Shown here one piece after another: positions 26,064-34,471 of a DNA stretch of 64,000 bases (the first letter of the stretch is position 1; the number at the start of each line of letters is the position of its first letter). The stretch comes from Escherichia phage ECP2303. Position numbers and translations under genes: made by a program. The stretch lies in sequence record PP261279.1, one strand, 5' to 3'. A model generated the notes under the pieces. The model was not told the DNA's origin, searched no databases, and saw only the letters and a list, made by a program, of their open reading frames with translations.

Positions 26064-27611
26064 TTAGATAAAACGCTTGAACATAGAAGGTGATGAGATT
26101 GATGGAATCACACAAGGCAGCGCTACCTCCTCTTTCTCTAGGAAATTAATCGCAGAAGCTACACAGTCGGCCCAGTCGTCTTTTCTGTTAAATGTTGATC
26201 TTTCCCCGTTGAACTTTTCAAGTTCAGTCAGAAATGCTTCCAGAGTGTCAGGATGGAAACTGGATTTTACAATCCTCACCATTCCTTGTTGGGCAAGATT
26301 GGCAAAAGGTGAGAACCTTGTCAGTTTAGATTTGTTGGAAGGCATTGGATCTTCTTCAACCCTGAACCCTTCGGCGAGCAAGGATCTGGATGAGGTTAAG
26401 AACTCACTCTTACCTGCCTGGCCGGGGTCCACAGAAAATACGATTATGCAATCATCTCCATCAAACTGTGCCTGTTTCCTGATGATCACATCTCGTTCCC
26501 CAGCCTTTTTACAGAACTTGCCTTCCAGACCTGTGGAATACCTACCGTCATCCACGTTCTCAGGACAATAATCTCCGGACAGGTAATAAAAGCCGTCGCT
26601 ATCTTTACTTACCTTAACACTGGCGGTAAAGTCAGGAAATTTATTACCGGAAGTTCTCTCGGTCCCTGCCTTATCCCATGCCCTGCAAGATACTGATCCA
26701 AGAGGTACTCTATCGGCATCCCGAAGGAAAGATCTTTGGAAATAGTTTGCACCCTCAGGTTTGGCAAACCAGTTGCCATGAAGAAGCTGGGCTTTTTCAA
26801 GCTCTGGCAGACCTTCAAGGAAAGCAAGGTATTCTGGGTTGTCTCTCAAGCAGACAGGATTATCGAAAATTGTTGCGCCTATAAACGAGAATGACAACGG
26901 TCTTGGCTTGATCTCCACACCCAGTCCGTTAACCGTGGTGTATTTCTCTATTAACTCTTCTTTAGAGTCTCCCCAAATAAATTCACCGTCGCGTCGGATA
27001 AAATATCTTTTCTTACCACATTTCTCCGGATCTGGATACCCTTCATCGTCCAACCACCACCTAACCAGTTTGGCAAGCATGTGTTCTGAGTCGGGGTTAC
27101 AGCTGATAACCATTCTTGATGGATACTTTGACTGAGATCGCAGACGAGACATCAAATAGTCTATCTGCTCCCATTCGAATTGCGTGCCTTCATCGAAGCA
27201 AACCATGGTGTACTCAAGGCCTTGATGGTTAAGCTTATCTTGGACATACTCCATGTGGCAGTATTTTACAACGGCCCCCTTTTTGCTCCTATCCCACTTG
27301 CCAGTGCTCGGATCAAACCGTGGAAAAATAAACTTATGATCCTTCTCTCTGAACTTTGGTTTAATGTTTTCAGGCAGATCACTGTAAATAGCTACTGCTT
27401 TAGGCCATAGCCCACCCTCACCTTCCAACTGGGGAGTTGTTCTTCGGAACATAACCACAGAGCTGTGCGGGTCATCAATAATTTTAAGCGGCATTAGCTG
27501 CAAGAGGAACGACTTGCCAGACCCAGCTGCACCTCCGATCACCAAAATATCTGCATCGTTCTCTAGGATCATCTTCTGCTTTTCAGAACACGGTCCGTAA
27601 ATCTTAGACAT
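26064..27611 (-). CDS. terminase large subunit
   Basis: Walker A GGAAGSGKS, Walker B-like VCFDEG, C-terminal nuclease-domain acidic motifs (SVDPGQ); 515 aa. Confidence 0.85.
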   Translation of the reverse strand: MSKIYGPCSEKQKMILENDADILVIGGAAGSGKSFLLQLMPLKIIDDPHSSVVMFRRTTPQLEGEGGLWPKAVAIYSDLPENIKPKFREKDHKFIFPRFDPSTGKWDRSKKGAVVKYCHMEYVQDKLNHQGLEYTMVCFDEGTQFEWEQIDYLMSRLRSQSKYPSRMVISCNPDSEHMLAKLVRWWLDDEGYPDPEKCGKKRYFIRRDGEFIWGDSKEELIEKYTTVNGLGVEIKPRPLSFSFIGATIFDNPVCLRDNPEYLAFLEGLPELEKAQLLHGNWFAKPEGANYFQRSFLRDADRVPLGSVSCRAWDKAGTERTSGNKFPDFTASVKVSKDSDGFYYLSGDYCPENVDDGRYSTGLEGKFCKKAGERDVIIRKQAQFDGDDCIIVFSVDPGQAGKSEFLTSSRSLLAEGFRVEEDPMPSNKSKLTRFSPFANLAQQGMVRIVKSSFHPDTLEAFLTELEKFNGERSTFNRKDDWADCVASAINFLEKEEVALPCVIPSISSPSMFKRFI

Positions 27612-28399: not shown

Positions 28400-28669
28400 T
28401 TATCGAGGCACTCGGTGGATGATTCTGACAGTAACCGCATTCTCATTCATCAAGTAAGCATCCACATCTCTGTAAATATAAAACTTCTGCTCGCTATCAA
28501 CAACACAAGCTACTGCCCCTTCAGAGTTGTCTTCAAAGAAGACCACAACTGCATCGCAGCTTAGTTCATGATACGACTCTCGAAGATTTACAGCAAGAGG
28601 GTTGAAATCGTCACGAAGATCTAAAGTATGGGTTGGATTTACACGTTCTACAATTTTAAGTGTATACAT
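28400..28669 (-). CDS. hypothetical protein
   Basis: 89-aa ORF downstream of the tRNA cluster with AAGGAA RBS. Confidence 0.4.
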   Translation of the reverse strand: MYTLKIVERVNPTHTLDLRDDFNPLAVNLRESYHELSCDAVVVFFEDNSEGAVACVVDSEQKFYIYRDVDAYLMNENAVTVRIIHRVPR

Positions 28670-28715: not shown

Positions 28716-28792
28716 TGGTCTCCACGGAGTGATTCGAACACTCGACCTCCTGATCCCAAATCAGGCGCTCTACCAAGCTGAGCTACGCGGAG
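28716..28792 (-). tRNA. tRNA-Pro (anticodon UGG)
   Basis: Hand-folded cloverleaf: acceptor with C1-G72, D-arm GCTCAGCTTGGTAGAGC, anticodon loop UUUGGGA, T-arm GAGTG-TTCGAAT-CACTC, CCA encoded. Confidence 0.7.
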
Positions 28793-28803
28793 TATTTATT
28801 ATT

Positions 28804-28878
28804 TGGTGGCCCTGGGTGGAATTGAACCACCGTCTGGCGATTATGAGTCGCTTGCTTGAACCTTCCAGCTACAGGGCC
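28804..28878 (-). tRNA. tRNA-Met (anticodon CAU; initiator-like loop CUCAUAA)
   Basis: Acceptor GGCCCTG/CAGGGCC, anticodon loop CUCAUAA, T-arm GGTGG-TTCAATT-CCACC, CCA encoded; could alternatively be a lysidine-modified Ile tRNA. Confidence 0.6.
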
Positions 28879-28879
28879 A

Positions 28880-28955
28880 TGGTGCTGATGGCAGGACTTG
28901 AACCTGCAACCTATTGATTACAAATCAATTGCACTGACAATTGTGCTACATCAGC
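28880..28955 (-). tRNA. tRNA-Thr (anticodon UGU)
   Basis: Acceptor GCTGATG/CATCAGC, D-stem GCAC/GTGC, anticodon stem ATTGA/TCAAT with loop UUUGUAA, T-arm GCAGG-TTCAAGT-CCTGC, CCA encoded; 1-nt spacer from tRNA-Met. Confidence 0.7.
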
Positions 28956-28959
28956 AAAA

Positions 28960-29058
28960 GGTGCTAGGTGATGGAATCGAACCACCTATGTATTCAACGA
29001 CTACCTCGTCTATTTTCAGGATTAAAAATCCTCGCCCTTGCCAAAGGGCTTACCTAGC
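28960..29058 (-). tRNA. atypical tRNA-like gene (99 nt; Lys-type UUUUUAA anticodon loop; ~30-nt insertion before the T-arm)
   Basis: Perfect 7-bp acceptor (GCTAGGT/ACCTAGC), D-arm GCCC-TTTGGCAA-GGGC, 4-bp anticodon stem AGGA/TCCT with loop UUUUUAA, extra hairpin ACGA-GGTAG-TCGT, T-arm GGTGG-TTCGATT-CCATC; too long for a canonical type I tRNA and not folding as a standard type II. Confidence 0.35.
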
Positions 29059-29156
29059 GCAATATGTTGACCATGTGGCTAGTCGGCGATGACGACTGTA
29101 ACATTTGATAATCCGGTTCTGCTTCCGGCTTTCGCTTAATTACAAGGTCAACAATG

Positions 29157-29247
29157 TGGCGGAGAGTAATGGAATCGAACCATCATCGAGTTATCCTCAA
29201 CGGGACGGTTTTCAAGACCGCTTGAGCACCATTGCTCCCTACCCTCC
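29157..29247 (-). tRNA. tRNA-Ser (anticodon UGA), type II
   Basis: Anticodon arm GCGGT-CUUGAAA-ACCGT nearly identical to E. coli tRNA-Ser(UGA); long variable arm; T-arm GATGG-TTCGATT-CCATT; CCA encoded; 91 nt. Confidence 0.7.
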
Positions 29248-29361
29248 TTTATAAATTACACTGATAATGACACTGATTTTCGAGCAGTTAGTGACTAGTA
29301 TAAACGACGATAAATATCAATGTCATTATCTGTATGATTTATGCATTTAAAAATATAAATT

Positions 29362-29448
29362 TGGTGGGGAGTGGTGGAGTCGAACCACCCGAGTCGCAAT
29401 GACAATAGATTTACAGTCTACACCGCTACCTCTACGGGATAACTCCCC
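29362..29448 (-). tRNA. tRNA-Tyr (anticodon GUA), type II
   Basis: Anticodon arm GTAGA-CUGUAAA-TCTAT and variable region TGTCATTGCGACTCG resemble E. coli tRNA-Tyr; T-arm GGTGG-TTCGACT-CCACC; CCA encoded; 87 nt. Confidence 0.65.
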
Positions 29449-29452
29449 AATT

Positions 29453-29527
29453 TGGCACCCCGTACTGGACTCGAACCAGTGTCAACGGCTTAGAAGGCCG
29501 CTGCTTTATCCACTAAGCTAACAGGGC
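29453..29527 (-). tRNA. tRNA-Arg (anticodon UCU)
   Basis: Acceptor GCCCTGT/ACGGGGT (two G-U pairs), D-stem GCTT/AAGC, anticodon stem GCGGC/GCCGT with loop CUUCUAA, T-arm ACTGG-TTCGAGT-CCAGT, CCA encoded. Confidence 0.65.
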
Positions 29528-29623: not shown

Positions 29624-29962
29624 TTAACTATTGCCAACAGGCTGTATTTCTGTGGTAAATGGCATAAAAGGTGCTGGTTTTTCAGCCTCTTCTACTACCA
29701 CCTCTTCCTCTTCACCAAACATCTCATCATATTCTTCCTGCATTCGGTCTGCCTTATCAAGAACATACTCTGCAATGCTTTGACGAATATTTTGTTTGGT
29801 TTTCGGGTCCAACATCAGCTCTCTTAAAACTTTGTGAGCTTCTGGAACCATCGCTATAAAAGATTCCTTCATATCAAGGATGTTCTTCTCTAGCTGAATG
29901 GCGTTGGACTCCTCTTTCAGAGGTCTGCCTCTACGGCGACGCTTTTTAGTTGTATCCGCCAT
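29624..29962 (-). CDS. small basic/acidic protein with AT-hook-like KKRRRRGRP motif
   Basis: Start assigned to ATG at 29962 (GGAGGAAAC RBS), 112 aa; N-terminal Arg/Lys cluster with GRP core, C-terminal acidic tail; the longer track ORF (to 30082) would overlap the promoter. Confidence 0.45.
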   Translation of the reverse strand: MADTTKKRRRRGRPLKEESNAIQLEKNILDMKESFIAMVPEAHKVLRELMLDPKTKQNIRQSIAEYVLDKADRMQEEYDEMFGEEEEVVVEEAEKPAPFMPFTTEIQPVGNS

Positions 29963-29990
29963 GTTTCCTCCATTATCACGTGATAGGTGG

Positions 29991-30019
29991 ATTTTATCAC
30001 GGCAAATACTGATTGTCAA
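29991..30019 (-). promoter_or_regulatory. sigma70-type promoter
   Basis: Minus-strand TTGACA (30014-30019), 17-nt spacer, TAAAAT (29991-29996); a 7-bp-stem hairpin (30026-30046) abuts the -35. Confidence 0.45.
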
Positions 30020-30307
30020 GTTCGCCGCAGGGTGGTATTCCCTGCGACTTGCCCAGCGTCCTGGACCAGCAAGACCCAACAAGTGGGTTACCAGATACCC
30101 ATTACCGCGCTCTGGCTCGACCTTATTACAGGTTGGCTGGGGTCACATCGTCATGTGCTGGCTGCCCCTACCATTTTAAGTGTGGTGCACTATCAAGCCC
30201 TCTAAGGGGAACTCAGACTTCTCCGAACCCTGTTTCAAAGCATCCGGAGATAAAGCCATCAAACTCATCTTTAAATTGGATATTCATCATGATACACGAA
30301 AACAACC

Positions 30308-31404: not shown

Positions 31405-31908
31405 AGCAGACTCCTCTTCAAGTTATAGAAAAACTCACTGTATCGCTTTGTAACGAGCTTTTCTATCAAACTGGTGCGATTGCCTTACTTGGTATAGTTT
31501 ATATAGCTGTGGAGCGATTTAGGGGCCTTCTTGTCAGTTTCCACACATAAACTTTATCCGAACTCGCGCGGGAGGCTCTCAACCGACTCCTTCCGGCGCT
31601 GGCAAGCTTTCGTCGGTGGTACACATTAGTGCTCGGCCTTTGGCCTGCGCTATCGCTTCGCTCCCACACATGTTAACAGTCCTGCATGTATGCACTTCTG
31701 TTATTGTGTGCACTATGGAGGCCCGGCATCTCGCCCCTCGTAGGCGAGTGCCAATGAAGGGCCGACACTACCCATAATAAGTAATAAATTTAAAACATGG
31801 TACTTAGGATCTAGTATATTCTACATAAGTTAAGTATATGTACTTTAGTACCATAAGTACTAGATCTTTTATTTTTATTATTTAGTTATTTTAGTTATAT
31901 TCTTTATG

Positions 31909-31989
31909 TGTCCGTATCACGGACAGTTAGTGTCCGTATTACGGGCAGATGTGTCCGCGTGACGGACAGTAGTGTCCGTATCACGGACA
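31909..31989. repeat. array of four 17-bp palindromic iterons (TGTCCGT-ATC-ACGGACA) phased at 21-22 bp
   Basis: Copies at 31909-31925, 31931-31947 (variant), 31952-31968 (variant centre), 31973-31989; each has 7-bp inverted arms; read directly from sequence. Confidence 0.85.
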
Positions 31990-32064
31990 GTTACTAACCT
32001 CTGTTCCAGAGTGAACATAAAACATACAAATCCTTATAGTACAGATGTTTAAGTTTTTACTGGT

Positions 32065-32415
32065 CTAACCAGTTGTTGACATTCGAATAACTTCTTCTGG
32101 TGGCAAAACTTTGTAAAATGTGCATCTTTTACCTCTCCCTTGTGTGGATATTTCAACCACTCCTGCACATTCTAAAGTTTTAACGCACGCTGCTGCTTTT
32201 GTTTTCTTTATCCCAACATCTGCTGCAATTTTCCTTGTGCTGGGTGTGAAGCGTGAATTTTCTCCAAGCTTATACCAGTTGTGCAGATAGCAGTATACGA
32301 TCTTGTCATATAAGTCAAGAACAACAACCTCCCCAGTTGTGTCATTCAAAACTTTTGACATAGACAGTATTTCAAGGGGGACTTTAAGATATAGCAGCTT
32401 ATCCCCATCTTTCAT
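32065..32415 (-). CDS. winged-helix DNA-binding protein (putative transcriptional regulator or initiator)
   Basis: 116 aa; TRKIAADVGIKKTKAAACVKTLECAGVVEI has the helix-turn-helix pattern of wHTH regulators; gene ends ~75 bp from the iteron array. Confidence 0.5.
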   Translation of the reverse strand: MKDGDKLLYLKVPLEILSMSKVLNDTTGEVVVLDLYDKIVYCYLHNWYKLGENSRFTPSTRKIAADVGIKKTKAAACVKTLECAGVVEISTQGRGKRCTFYKVLPPEEVIRMSTTG

Positions 32416-33024: not shown

Positions 33025-33435
33025 TCATTTAAGTTTAATGCAGTTTTTAAGCTGGCGTTCCATACGATCCACAACCCTGTCTGGAACATCATGAATGCTT
33101 TTATTACCATGGCGGTTTTCAACCACGATCACGGTATAACTATATCCATGACTGATCGCCATGTCAATATATTCTTGCACATATTTTTCTTTTGTAAACG
33201 TATTACTTACCACGATACGGTCGTAGCCCATACGCATCATATCTTCTACGTTATCTTTGCACCATTTTGCTGCAAGTGTTACTTTACTTGCATCCCAATT
33301 GTAATTGCCGTCATCGTCGTACCAGAACATATCGTTCTCAAAATGTGGATACAGACCTTCTAAAGATAGCGCATTTGCCAGTGTTGATTTGCCAGACCCT
33401 GGTAGACCACGCACGATATATAGCATTTTAGACAT
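33025..33435 (-). CDS. P-loop polynucleotide kinase-like protein
   Basis: Start at ATG 33435 (GGAGAG RBS); Walker A GLPGSGKST near N-terminus as in T4 Pnk kinase domain; 136 aa. Confidence 0.6.
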   Translation of the reverse strand: MSKMLYIVRGLPGSGKSTLANALSLEGLYPHFENDMFWYDDDGNYNWDASKVTLAAKWCKDNVEDMMRMGYDRIVVSNTFTKEKYVQEYIDMAISHGYSYTVIVVENRHGNKSIHDVPDRVVDRMERQLKNCIKLK

Positions 33436-33463
33436 AGTAACTCTCCGTTTTAATTTTAATGAT

Positions 33464-33492
33464 AGTATACCTAACTGTTTTGTTAATTTCAA
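33464..33492 (-). promoter_or_regulatory. sigma70-type promoter for the kinase/phosphatase operon
   Basis: Minus-strand TTGAAA, 17-nt spacer, TATACT; about 30 nt upstream of the kinase start. Confidence 0.4.
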
Positions 33493-33495
33493 GTG

Positions 33496-33524
33496 TTGAC
33501 ACCAGGTTATTTGTGTGGCAGAAT
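33496..33524 (+). promoter_or_regulatory. sigma70-type promoter opening the plus-strand block
   Basis: TTGACA, 17-nt spacer ending TGTGG, then CAGAAT; divergent from the minus-strand promoter. Confidence 0.4.
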
Positions 33525-33556
33525 AAAGGGACAAAATGACAAATGAGGAATGTATG

Positions 33557-34471
33557 ATGAAGTATTTTAATGCAGACGACCTGGTTGACAAAGGTCTTGT
33601 AACCAGCAGATATTACCCAGATCTTGGATTAAAGATCTACAAATATGCCAGAAAAGTATTCTACAACAATTTATGGCATTTGTCTCCGCGTTTACTAGAG
33701 TGCCGAGGCATTGTTGTCGGTAATGAAGGAAATGTTGTGGCATGGCCCTTCACAAAAGTGTTTAATTTGGGAGAAAACTCCACCAACCTGCCTGACAATA
33801 AACTTGTGACGGCGGTAGAGAAAAAGAACGGATTCCTTGGTGTGGTATCATCTCATAAAGGTGAACTATTGTTTTCAACAACCGGGTCTCTTGATTCTCC
33901 ATATTGTAACCTTGCAAAGGAAACCATCCAGGAGCAATGTGGTAATTTAGATCTCATCAAAAAGGTTATGGGCCATGAAAACATGACATTCATGTTTGAA
34001 ATTTGTCACCCTTCAGATCCGCATATTGTTCAGGAAGACCATGGCGCATATTTGATAGGTTGCAGATATAACGATTCTGGAATAATGCTACCAGAAGCAG
34101 CTTTAGATGGGATTGCCAAATACCTTGGTGCAAAACGTCCTCACACTGTGCGTGAAATTCCGTTCAGCTATGCAAAAGAATTAGCTGCAGAAACAAGAGG
34201 TGAAGGGTATATGATTCGTAAGCCTTACTACCCTTATGATCTGCAGCTGAAGATCAAGTCTCCATACTATTTGGCACGGAAGGCCGTAATGAGGGGTAAA
34301 GCTTGGAAGATTTGGGATGATGATATCTTTAAACGTATTGACGAAGAGTTTTACGGCATGGTAAACTTCATTCGTAACAATTACACAGAAGATGTGTGGA
34401 ACTGCCTCCTAGAGCAGGAACGCCGTGAGATACTTGACTGCTATTTCCACAACGAGGACTATATGCAATGA
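33557..34471 (+). CDS. RNA ligase 1 (T4 RnlA-like)
   Basis: LECRGIVVGNEG and FNLGEN match T4 Rnl1 (LECRGIMFEMDG, FNLNEN); nucleotidyltransferase motif I KKNGFL matches KEDGSL; start assigned to ATG with GAGGAA RBS (track start 33536). Confidence 0.75.
   Translation: MKYFNADDLVDKGLVTSRYYPDLGLKIYKYARKVFYNNLWHLSPRLLECRGIVVGNEGNVVAWPFTKVFNLGENSTNLPDNKLVTAVEKKNGFLGVVSSHKGELLFSTTGSLDSPYCNLAKETIQEQCGNLDLIKKVMGHENMTFMFEICHPSDPHIVQEDHGAYLIGCRYNDSGIMLPEAALDGIAKYLGAKRPHTVREIPFSYAKELAAETRGEGYMIRKPYYPYDLQLKIKSPYYLARKAVMRGKAWKIWDDDIFKRIDEEFYGMVNFIRNNYTEDVWNCLLEQERREILDCYFHNEDYMQ

Follow-up and report, generated by a model that had tools for sequence, protein, structure and literature searches.

What does the short gene at positions 29624-29962 of this phage encode? 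The window, by which we mean the whole stretch of 64,000 nucleotides that was analysed (Escherichia phage ECP2303, PP261279.1), is, judged by its sequence, that of a Vequintavirus, i.e., an rV5-like myovirus. In a BLAST comparison, the 1.1 kb around the gene share 100% identity with Escherichia phage ECP2309 and 99.7% with the BASEL phage Bas59 EduardKellenberger, where a near-identical copy of the gene is bas59_0207. Both phages are Vequintavirus members, rV5-like myoviruses of ~137 kb, and positions 64461-128460 of ECP2309 correspond directly to the window coordinates. A T5-like identity, which the tRNA cluster might suggest, was rejected on the BLAST result. More than 200 genome records carry the gene as "hypothetical protein", and this is its annotation in every phage record listed, including that of rV5, whose orthologue is rv5_gp070 (named in the PVP-SE1 record). 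A preliminary description had seen in it an early protein of histone-like or nucleoid-remodelling type, with an AT-hook-like motif and an acidic tail. We arrive at a different reading. Profile comparisons and a predicted structure suggest that the gene quite probably encodes the small terminase (TerS) of the rV5-like phages, in a minimal form in which the helix-turn-helix domain (HTH) is replaced by an AT-hook-like arm.

The position of TerS is vacant in these phages as annotated. TerS annotation is absent from the region of ECP2309 that corresponds to the window, from the local region of nomo, and from the regions of HMD-6 that lie outside the window, and likewise from Bas59, whose manually refined annotation opens with the spanins and TerL, without a TerS. 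For the Vequintavirinae phage P7_Pc, TerL alone could be identified (PMC9769974), and in the literature on rV5 and Vequintavirus we found no assignment of a TerS. According to a 2022 review, an HTH is a feature common to all TerS proteins, their usual size is 15-21 kDa, the solved TerS rings have 8-12 subunits, and a position of the TerS gene next to that of TerL is typical, but not universal, the TerS gene of E217 being 58 kb away (PMC9611059).

The gene and its control signals are laid out as follows.

29624-29962, minus strand: coding sequence of the 112-aa protein, stop included; candidate TerS, family phrog_3330 (open reading frame and translation; phrog_3330 at E 9.9e-47).
29966-29971, minus strand: ribosome-binding site GGAGGA, 4 bases ahead of the ATG (direct sequence reading).
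29974-29985, no strand assigned: perfect 12-bp palindrome TATCACGTGATA, downstream of the -10 box and ahead of the ribosome-binding site, a possible operator; sole exact copy in the window.
29991-30019, minus strand: sigma-70-type promoter TTGACA-17-TAAAAT with an extended -10 TG; 11 of 12 positions matched (promoter scan).

Translation from the ATG at 29962 to the stop at 29624-29626 on the minus strand gives a protein of 112 aa (MADTTKKRRRRGRPLKEESNAIQ...EMFGEEEEVVVEEAEKPAPFMPFTTEIQPVGNS), 13.07 kDa and pI 4.9. The mechanical ORF list holds a longer, TTG-started ORF of 152 aa, which we rejected as the gene because the promoter lies inside it and because all homologues begin at the MA... position. 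That the gene has its own promoter, as the preliminary description had stated, is borne out, and the orthologues in PVP-SE1, CR8, ChuuTotoro and the metagenomic locus L010 are likewise preceded by promoter-like sites; in the PVP-SE1 record, the site is annotated as a promoter. Strong sigma-70-type promoters elsewhere in the window concentrate in the region of the replication genes. Our search of the literature on expression timing in Vequintavirus returned no usable transcriptome. As to the palindrome in the leader, matches in the window with 2 mismatches allowed were not above chance, and for lack of further copies in the window no regulon could be proposed.

The gene stands in a long co-directional arrangement on the minus strand. 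On its upstream side lie the genes for a polynucleotide kinase, a phosphoesterase and a 116-aa protein, followed by several small ORFs and then the gene itself; downstream of it come seven tRNAs, an 89-aa ORF, i-spanin, o-spanin, TerL, portal, prohead protease, scaffold and capsid. The gene is thus located ~2 kb upstream of the block of spanin, TerL, portal, protease and capsid genes, and is co-directional with it. Two of these neighbours matter for what follows.

28716-29527, minus strand: cluster of seven tRNA genes, which separates the candidate TerS gene from the lysis/packaging genes (ARAGORN, Rfam).
26064-27611, minus strand: TerL, the large terminase subunit and proposed partner, downstream (phrog_979 at E 1.7e-208; annotated TerL in ECP2309 and Bas59).

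The tRNA operon beside which the gene had been placed is this seven-tRNA cluster, directly downstream. It has a promoter-like site of its own, TTGACA-17-TAATAT at 29614-29586, directly after the stop codon of the gene (promoter scan). Neither the 89-aa ORF (28400-28669) nor the other neighbours of the gene gave a TerS signal. An Rfam search of the window and of two GC-rich islands returned tRNAs and sub-threshold noise only; the two islands have no clear relation to each other.

Relatives of the gene in other genomes keep its association with TerL. The order gene, tRNA array, spanins and TerL is found, as in the window, in PVP-SE1 (Seunavirus), CR8 (Certrevirus) and ChuuTotoro. In more distant family members, the distance to TerL can be much shorter. 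The gene for P0041 (25% identity, locus L010) stops a single base short of TerL, which here belongs to the PHROG family of the window TerL, with portal and protease following; for P0044, ~350 nt separate the gene from a downstream TerL that an HNH gene interrupts; the gene for P0046 is followed by a small ORF, i-spanin, o-spanin and TerL, which is the arrangement of the window without the tRNAs; and that for P0040 lies ~2 kb upstream of TerL. In all four cases the gene is on the same strand as TerL, and portal and protease genes are located downstream. Locus L006 is free of tRNAs within 6.9 kb, and in L003 and L010 no tRNA separates the gene from TerL; the linkage to TerL is kept in all three. 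Thus, tRNAs are often near the gene but can be absent or elsewhere, and the constant neighbour is TerL. A location near TerL, which is typical of a TerS gene, is seen in the window (~2 kb upstream) and in these relatives. This synteny may in part mirror inherited gene order, since the phages share a packaging module whose TerL, portal and protease come from the same families.

The protein is a member of phrog_3330, a PHROG family of unknown function and its sole PHROG match. A word-indexed search found 29 close relatives. With a profile, searched exhaustively against 1.84 billion representatives, 23 proteins were retrieved, mostly of ~100-140 aa, down to 23% identity. All family members have a basic arm, an acidic tail and a terminal hydrophobic motif. 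The helical region between them follows the pattern P-x-A...L..LM...R...AK, and the C-terminal end is short, hydrophobic and beta-prone, reading PF(T/S)T(D/E)I in close and GIVVNFGG-like in distant members. In the alignment of 22 members, again down to 23% identity, the sole invariant columns are G12, R13 and P14. The persistence of G-R-P at this distance shows that the motif is under selection rather than a chance string. Across the same 22 sequences the net charge of the arm ranges from +3 to +8.

On the window protein itself, four parts can be told apart.

29915-29962, minus strand: basic AT-hook-like arm, residues 1-16, MADTTKKRRRRGRPLK, net charge +7; predicted to be disordered in both AF2 models.
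29717-29917, minus strand: helical hairpin, residues 16-82 (helix 16-51, turn DPKTK, helix 57-82), the proposed ring-forming oligomerisation core (AF2, hhalign, Foldseek).
29669-29716, minus strand: acidic disordered linker, residues 83-98, GEEEEVVVEEAEKPAP, net charge -6; variable in sequence and acidic throughout the family.
29627-29668, minus strand: conserved C-terminal motif PF(T/S)T(D/E)I, residues 99-112, FMPFTTEIQPVGNS; close homologues all share P101, F102, T104 and I106.

The composition given in the preliminary description, a basic N-terminus with KKRRRRGRP and a strongly acidic tail, is indeed present (+7 over residues 1-16, -10 over residues 75-98) and recurs throughout the family. 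The structural part of this division comes from an AF2 model built with a diverse alignment, which has a mean pLDDT of 79, block means of 87-96 over the hairpin, and a disordered arm and tail. In this model, residues 16-51 are one continuous helix and residues 1-15 are disordered. A first AF2 model, for which close homologues only were used, was poor (pLDDT 69.5, pTM 0.31), and Foldseek searches with it against PDB and BFVD returned nothing useful, such that the diverse-alignment model is the only informative one. The C-terminal motif is proposed to be a TerL-binding peptide or a strand of a beta-barrel stalk.

Is the arm an AT-hook? It reads KKRRRRGRPLK, with the R-G-R-P core encoded at 29921-29932, and to judge from the sequence it has one feature of an AT-hook, an R-G-R-P core flanked by basic residues. 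The likeness to AT-hooks of the HMGA type lies in this core after a run of Arg and Lys. It differs in that L-K-E-E rather than basic residues follow the proline, and in that the motif is present in a single copy per chain in this family. With a single arm per chain, multivalency would need oligomerisation. The Pfam AT_hook model (PF02178) gave no match to the window protein. Five family members were matched with E up to 1, all below the gathering threshold of 17.4 bits; P0043, P0037, P0044 and P0046 scored 11.9-16.1 bits. Several relatives carry strings like KRGRGRPRK or KRGRGRPPK, which we take to be close to the hooks of HMGA. Hence, of the AT-hook-like motif in the preliminary description, the R-G-R-P core and a G-R-P that is invariant in 22 sequences stand, and a Pfam match for the protein does not. 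"AT-hook-like" is a fair description, and membership among the AT-hooks is not established.

Arms of this kind are known beside HTH domains. Hin recombinase has a GRPR arm, and the TerS of phage Sf6, gp1, begins with KAGRPS; in both, a G-R-P peptide borders a DNA-binding module on its N-terminal side and probably enters the minor groove. In these two proteins, however, the arm supplements an HTH, whereas the AF2 model of the window protein has no HTH after the arm. Minor-groove DNA binding is the most plausible role for the arm, as far as its sequence can tell. Our literature searches turned up no account of an AT-hook in a small terminase.

The remaining evidence concerns the helical region and its resemblance to small terminases. 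The Pfam scan of the 112-aa protein returned noise matches alone (NCAB2 and Adeno_L4), with no HTH family and no TerS model among them. When a profile of the close homologues was compared with PDB sequences, the TerS of NV1 (7joq) came second at E 0.3, over the helical region, and was the only phage packaging protein among the matches listed. We then compared alignments by hhalign, with the family alignment (from which P0047 had been removed) on one side and an alignment of 25 NV1/PaP3 TerS homologues on the other. They matched at E 5.6e-5 and a probability of 66% over 41 columns, pairing residues 32-72 with residues 68-108 of NV1. The score of 34.9 compares with 12.3 +/- 2.2 (maximum 20.4) for 150 column shuffles, which are a lenient null, and with 11.0 for the reversed profile. 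Going by the sequence of NV1 and the domain limits of PaP3, we read the matched segment as lying within the alpha4-alpha5 oligomerisation hairpin that has been described for PaP3 (PMC7672466).

Distant members of the family connect it to annotated small terminases. P0047 matches phrog_2538, a "terminase small subunit", at 5.4e-9 and also phrog_3330 at 1.1e-7; weaker matches link P0040 and P0037 to phrog_2538 (0.007) and P0045 to the TerS family phrog_7344 (0.0025). These matches cover the hairpin region. The window protein differs from phrog_2538 and phrog_7344 in that it matches phrog_3330 only, and in the bridging P0047 the shared core is preceded by a segment that, read by eye, is HTH-like, a place that is taken by the RGRP arm in the window protein. 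An endolysin gene follows that of P0047, which matches the TerS-lysozyme gene order of NV1.

The predicted fold points in the same direction. In a Foldseek search with the diverse-alignment model against 350,542 PDB chains, the top 7 of 30 matches with E up to 10 were all TerS of NV1 or PaP3 (probability up to 0.96, identity 26-35%, E 0.26-2), and the best of these superpositions had an rmsd of 2.1-2.4 A over 54 columns. A reciprocal test used 1,777 stop-to-stop ORFs, taken from the window and from the rest of a 99.5%-identical genome. Among these, an HMM of the NV1 family (E 0.0021) and P0047 (E 6e-7) each matched the ORF of our gene alone, the next best having E >1; on the window only, the NV1-family HMM matched it at E 8e-4.

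Among the structural hallmarks of a TerS, the central helical hairpin that serves as oligomerisation core is present in the model (PMC9611059). The N-terminal HTH is not: residues 1-15 are disordered, residues 16-51 form a single helix, and no HTH family was matched. A TerS also has a flexible C-terminal moiety for contact with TerL, or a stalk; the window protein ends in a disordered acidic linker and the conserved PFTTEI motif, which may serve in such a way. The TerS of NV1 and PaP3 (7JOQ, 6W7T) are the best match of the family by sequence profile and by fold, and share the helical hairpin with it, but they have 152-157 aa as compared to 112 aa, and the window protein has the RGRP arm and no HTH. 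In PaP3, a three-helix HTH domain (residues 18-63) precedes the hairpin, and a beta-strand at 107-121 builds a nine-stranded barrel before the acidic tail (PMC7672466). An acidic disordered C-terminal region is thus a feature common to PaP3 TerS (PMC7672466) and the window protein; in the latter, however, the acidic stretch precedes the only beta-prone segment. Further, in NV1 as in the window, lysis genes (lysozyme in NV1, spanins here) separate the TerS or candidate TerS gene from a TerL that follows downstream in the same orientation. PF20901, the Pfam family precomputed for the TerS of NV1 and PaP3, was reached by no member of the window family. What is known here is therefore probably the kind, a TerS of the NV1/PaP3 type, and what is new is a probable TerS with an AT-hook-like arm in the place of the HTH.

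Several points speak against a TerS. Taken singly, the similarities are weak (E 0.3 for the PDB profile, E 0.26 for Foldseek, a probability of 66% for hhalign), and they span just a helical hairpin of 41-54 residues, which is a common and easily mimicked shape. At 13 kDa the protein is below the usual 15-21 kDa (PMC9611059), and it is without an HTH. In the window, the gene is not adjacent to TerL, with seven tRNAs, the 89-aa ORF and two spanins in between, and its strong sigma-70-type promoter, of the kind seen in the replication region, would fit early expression. Furthermore, the packaging modes reported in the subfamily differ, being headful for a Vequintavirus (PMC13211470) and involving a 514-bp terminal repeat in the Mydovirus KPP-1 (PMC9862379). 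The KPP-1 repeat is far from the gene and lies among small divergent genes elsewhere.

These points leave room for other functions. One would be that of an early nucleoid-associated protein, transcribed by host RNA polymerase, that covers or remodels AT-rich DNA of host or phage through its arm, in the manner of H-NS, Lsr2 or HMGA, with the acidic tail as a modulator or DNA mimic. The invariant R-G-R-P arm with its net charge of +7, the sub-threshold AT_hook matches in five relatives, and a strong, conserved promoter of a type that otherwise clusters in the region of the replication genes all go well with such a protein. We nevertheless consider it decidedly unlikely. No similarity to a nucleoid protein family such as H-NS, Lsr2, HU or the HMGA-like CarD came up in Pfam, PHROGs, PDB sequences, Foldseek against PDB, or BFVD; a nucleoid protein would not be expected to keep a conserved position upstream of TerL, let alone to abut it as in L010; HMGA-type proteins have several arms as opposed to one per chain; and the conserved C-terminal motif would be left unexplained. 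The histone-like or nucleoid-remodelling role that had been put forward draws on composition and on the sigma-70-type promoter, and the only resemblances that we found are to TerS; we do not favour it.

The hairpin and arm could also have been inherited from a TerS and put to other use, namely in a regulator of the tRNA/lysis/packaging operon that acts, for example, as an activator or as an autorepressor at the leader palindrome, with the true TerS elsewhere or dispensable. Such a role could draw on the gene's own promoter and on the perfect 12-bp palindrome in its leader. The gene also heads a co-directional block in which no terminator was predicted ahead of the tRNAs, and in the Vequintavirinae tRNA arrays separate it from TerL. 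However, the equivalent of the whole genome (1,777 ORFs) holds no other TerS-like ORF, the gene abuts TerL in distant relatives like a classical TerS, the palindrome is unique in the window with no regulon visible, and an AT-hook arm offers little sequence specificity, all of which makes a regulator unlikely. Least of all do we expect an RNA-binding protein of the tRNA cluster, be it a tRNA chaperone, a processing cofactor or an antiterminator like lambda N, that uses the arginine-rich N-terminus. The size and disorder of the protein do resemble those of lambda N, and tRNA arrays contain or adjoin the gene in the window, PVP-SE1, CR8, ChuuTotoro, L004 and L011. But this role is weakened by the loci that keep TerL and lack the tRNAs (L006 without any within 6.9 kb, L010 and L003 with none before TerL); an invariant G-R-P is what one expects of minor-groove arms rather than of arginine-rich RNA-binding peptides, and no RNA-binding family was matched. 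We therefore regard it as highly improbable.

How might a TerS of this design work? The candidate would mark phage DNA for packaging and recruit the large terminase. For this, the 15-residue arm, rich in Arg and Lys and with its invariant R-G-R-P core, would stand in for the N-terminal HTH domain, and ring assembly would fall to the hairpin of residues 16-82, as it does in the TerS of NV1, PaP3 and SF6. A ring of 8-12 subunits would present ~8-12 outward-facing N-terminal arms, whose R-G-R cores could enter the minor groove of A/T-rich DNA where packaging starts. Affinity and choice of site would then come from the multivalent ring and not from a folded domain, and the acidic linker together with the PFTTEI motif may contact TerL or form a short beta-barrel stalk. 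We infer ring formation, minor-groove DNA binding, the contact with TerL and the role in packaging from the architecture of the protein and from homology. That this is the working TerS of the Vequintavirinae, with no folded DNA-binding domain of any kind, and that a ring of ~10 AT-hook-like arms reads minor-groove shape and A/T content in its stead, is a proposition that we hold to be evenly poised. Recognition of a packaging site by such arms would be a mode that has not been described for any terminase. In a bolder version, expression from the host-type promoter may allow this protein to bind DNA in the early phase of infection too.

Phages of the rV5 type, like their relatives (PVP-SE1, Mydovirus, Certrevirus), are often isolated and have been proposed for biocontrol and therapy. 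If the assignment as TerS is true, it would complete the packaging machinery of this group and would give a handle on where packaging starts, and hence on the risk of generalised transduction. It would also provide a natural test of how much of a TerS is needed for the recognition of DNA, and a very small scaffold for structural work. Were the HTH indeed swapped for a 15-residue minor-groove arm, this would indicate that avidity, provided by simple arms on a ring, can be enough.

The leader of the candidate small terminase gene contains a perfect 12-bp palindrome, TATCACGTGATA (29974-29985), which is flanked by the -10 box on one side and by the ribosome-binding site of the gene on the other, and which has no second exact copy within the 64-kb window. 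Immediately upstream of the promoter of this gene lies a GC-rich island (30020-30240), with a GC content of 0.53-0.59 as compared to approximately 0.40 in its surroundings. The island apparently lacks coding content, its minus strand is predicted to fold with a z-score of -2.6, and no Rfam family matched it. Within it, the following core can be delimited:

30096-30140, minus strand: 45-nt core of the GC-rich island, CCAGCCAACCTGTAATAAGGTCGAGCCAGAGCGCGGTAATGGGTA

Hundreds of T4-like (Tequatrovirus) genomes carry an intergenic segment that is approximately 89-96% identical to this core; in RB32, for example, it is found on the transcribed strand between Ip4 and vs.8. There is a second GC-rich island at 31525-31750 (GC 0.55-0.56). 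The only ORFs in it are short, start with GTG or TTG, and appear in the annotation of some records as tiny hypothetical proteins. Here, too, Rfam gave no match above noise, and the two islands are not clearly related to each other.

One member of the tRNA cluster next to the candidate small terminase gene is unusual:

28960-29058, minus strand: tRNA-like gene, unusually long at 97-99 nt (ARAGORN, Rfam)

ARAGORN assigns to it an odd, four-base anticodon, atcc, and its Rfam tRNA score is 35.5 bits. Its annotation varies between records, from tRNA-Lys to tRNA-OTHER and pseudo-tRNA.

In two metagenomic loci carrying distant homologs of the candidate small terminase gene, the gene for the large terminase subunit, TerL, is divided into an N-terminal and a C-terminal ORF (L004, 8411-10006; L006, 1239-3769). 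In L006, the two ORFs are separated by an HNH-type gene, suggesting that TerL is interrupted by an intron or a homing-endonuclease insertion.

The direction of transcription switches divergently at 33435-33557. The blocks that run leftward from this point are the one with polynucleotide kinase/phosphoesterase and the one extending from the tRNAs to the structural genes, and rightward run the genes for RNA ligase, a Sir2-like protein, DNA ligase and replication. On the minus strand, the stretch 33167-33591 holds a cluster of several sigma-70-like sites.

Four tandem repeats of 21-22 nt each, GTGTCCGTATCACGGACAGTTA, are found at 31908-31993, every one of them containing the palindrome GTCCGTATCACGGAC, and they adjoin a very AT-rich stretch (31780-31900, GC 0.26). 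Just upstream of both elements is a gene of 116 aa (32065-32415). It matches phrog_12838, "replication initiation protein", and other annotations call it a transcriptional regulator or a DsrC-like protein. The repeats and the AT-rich stretch look like iterons with an unwinding element, and this region is therefore a candidate for a replication origin or an operator array.
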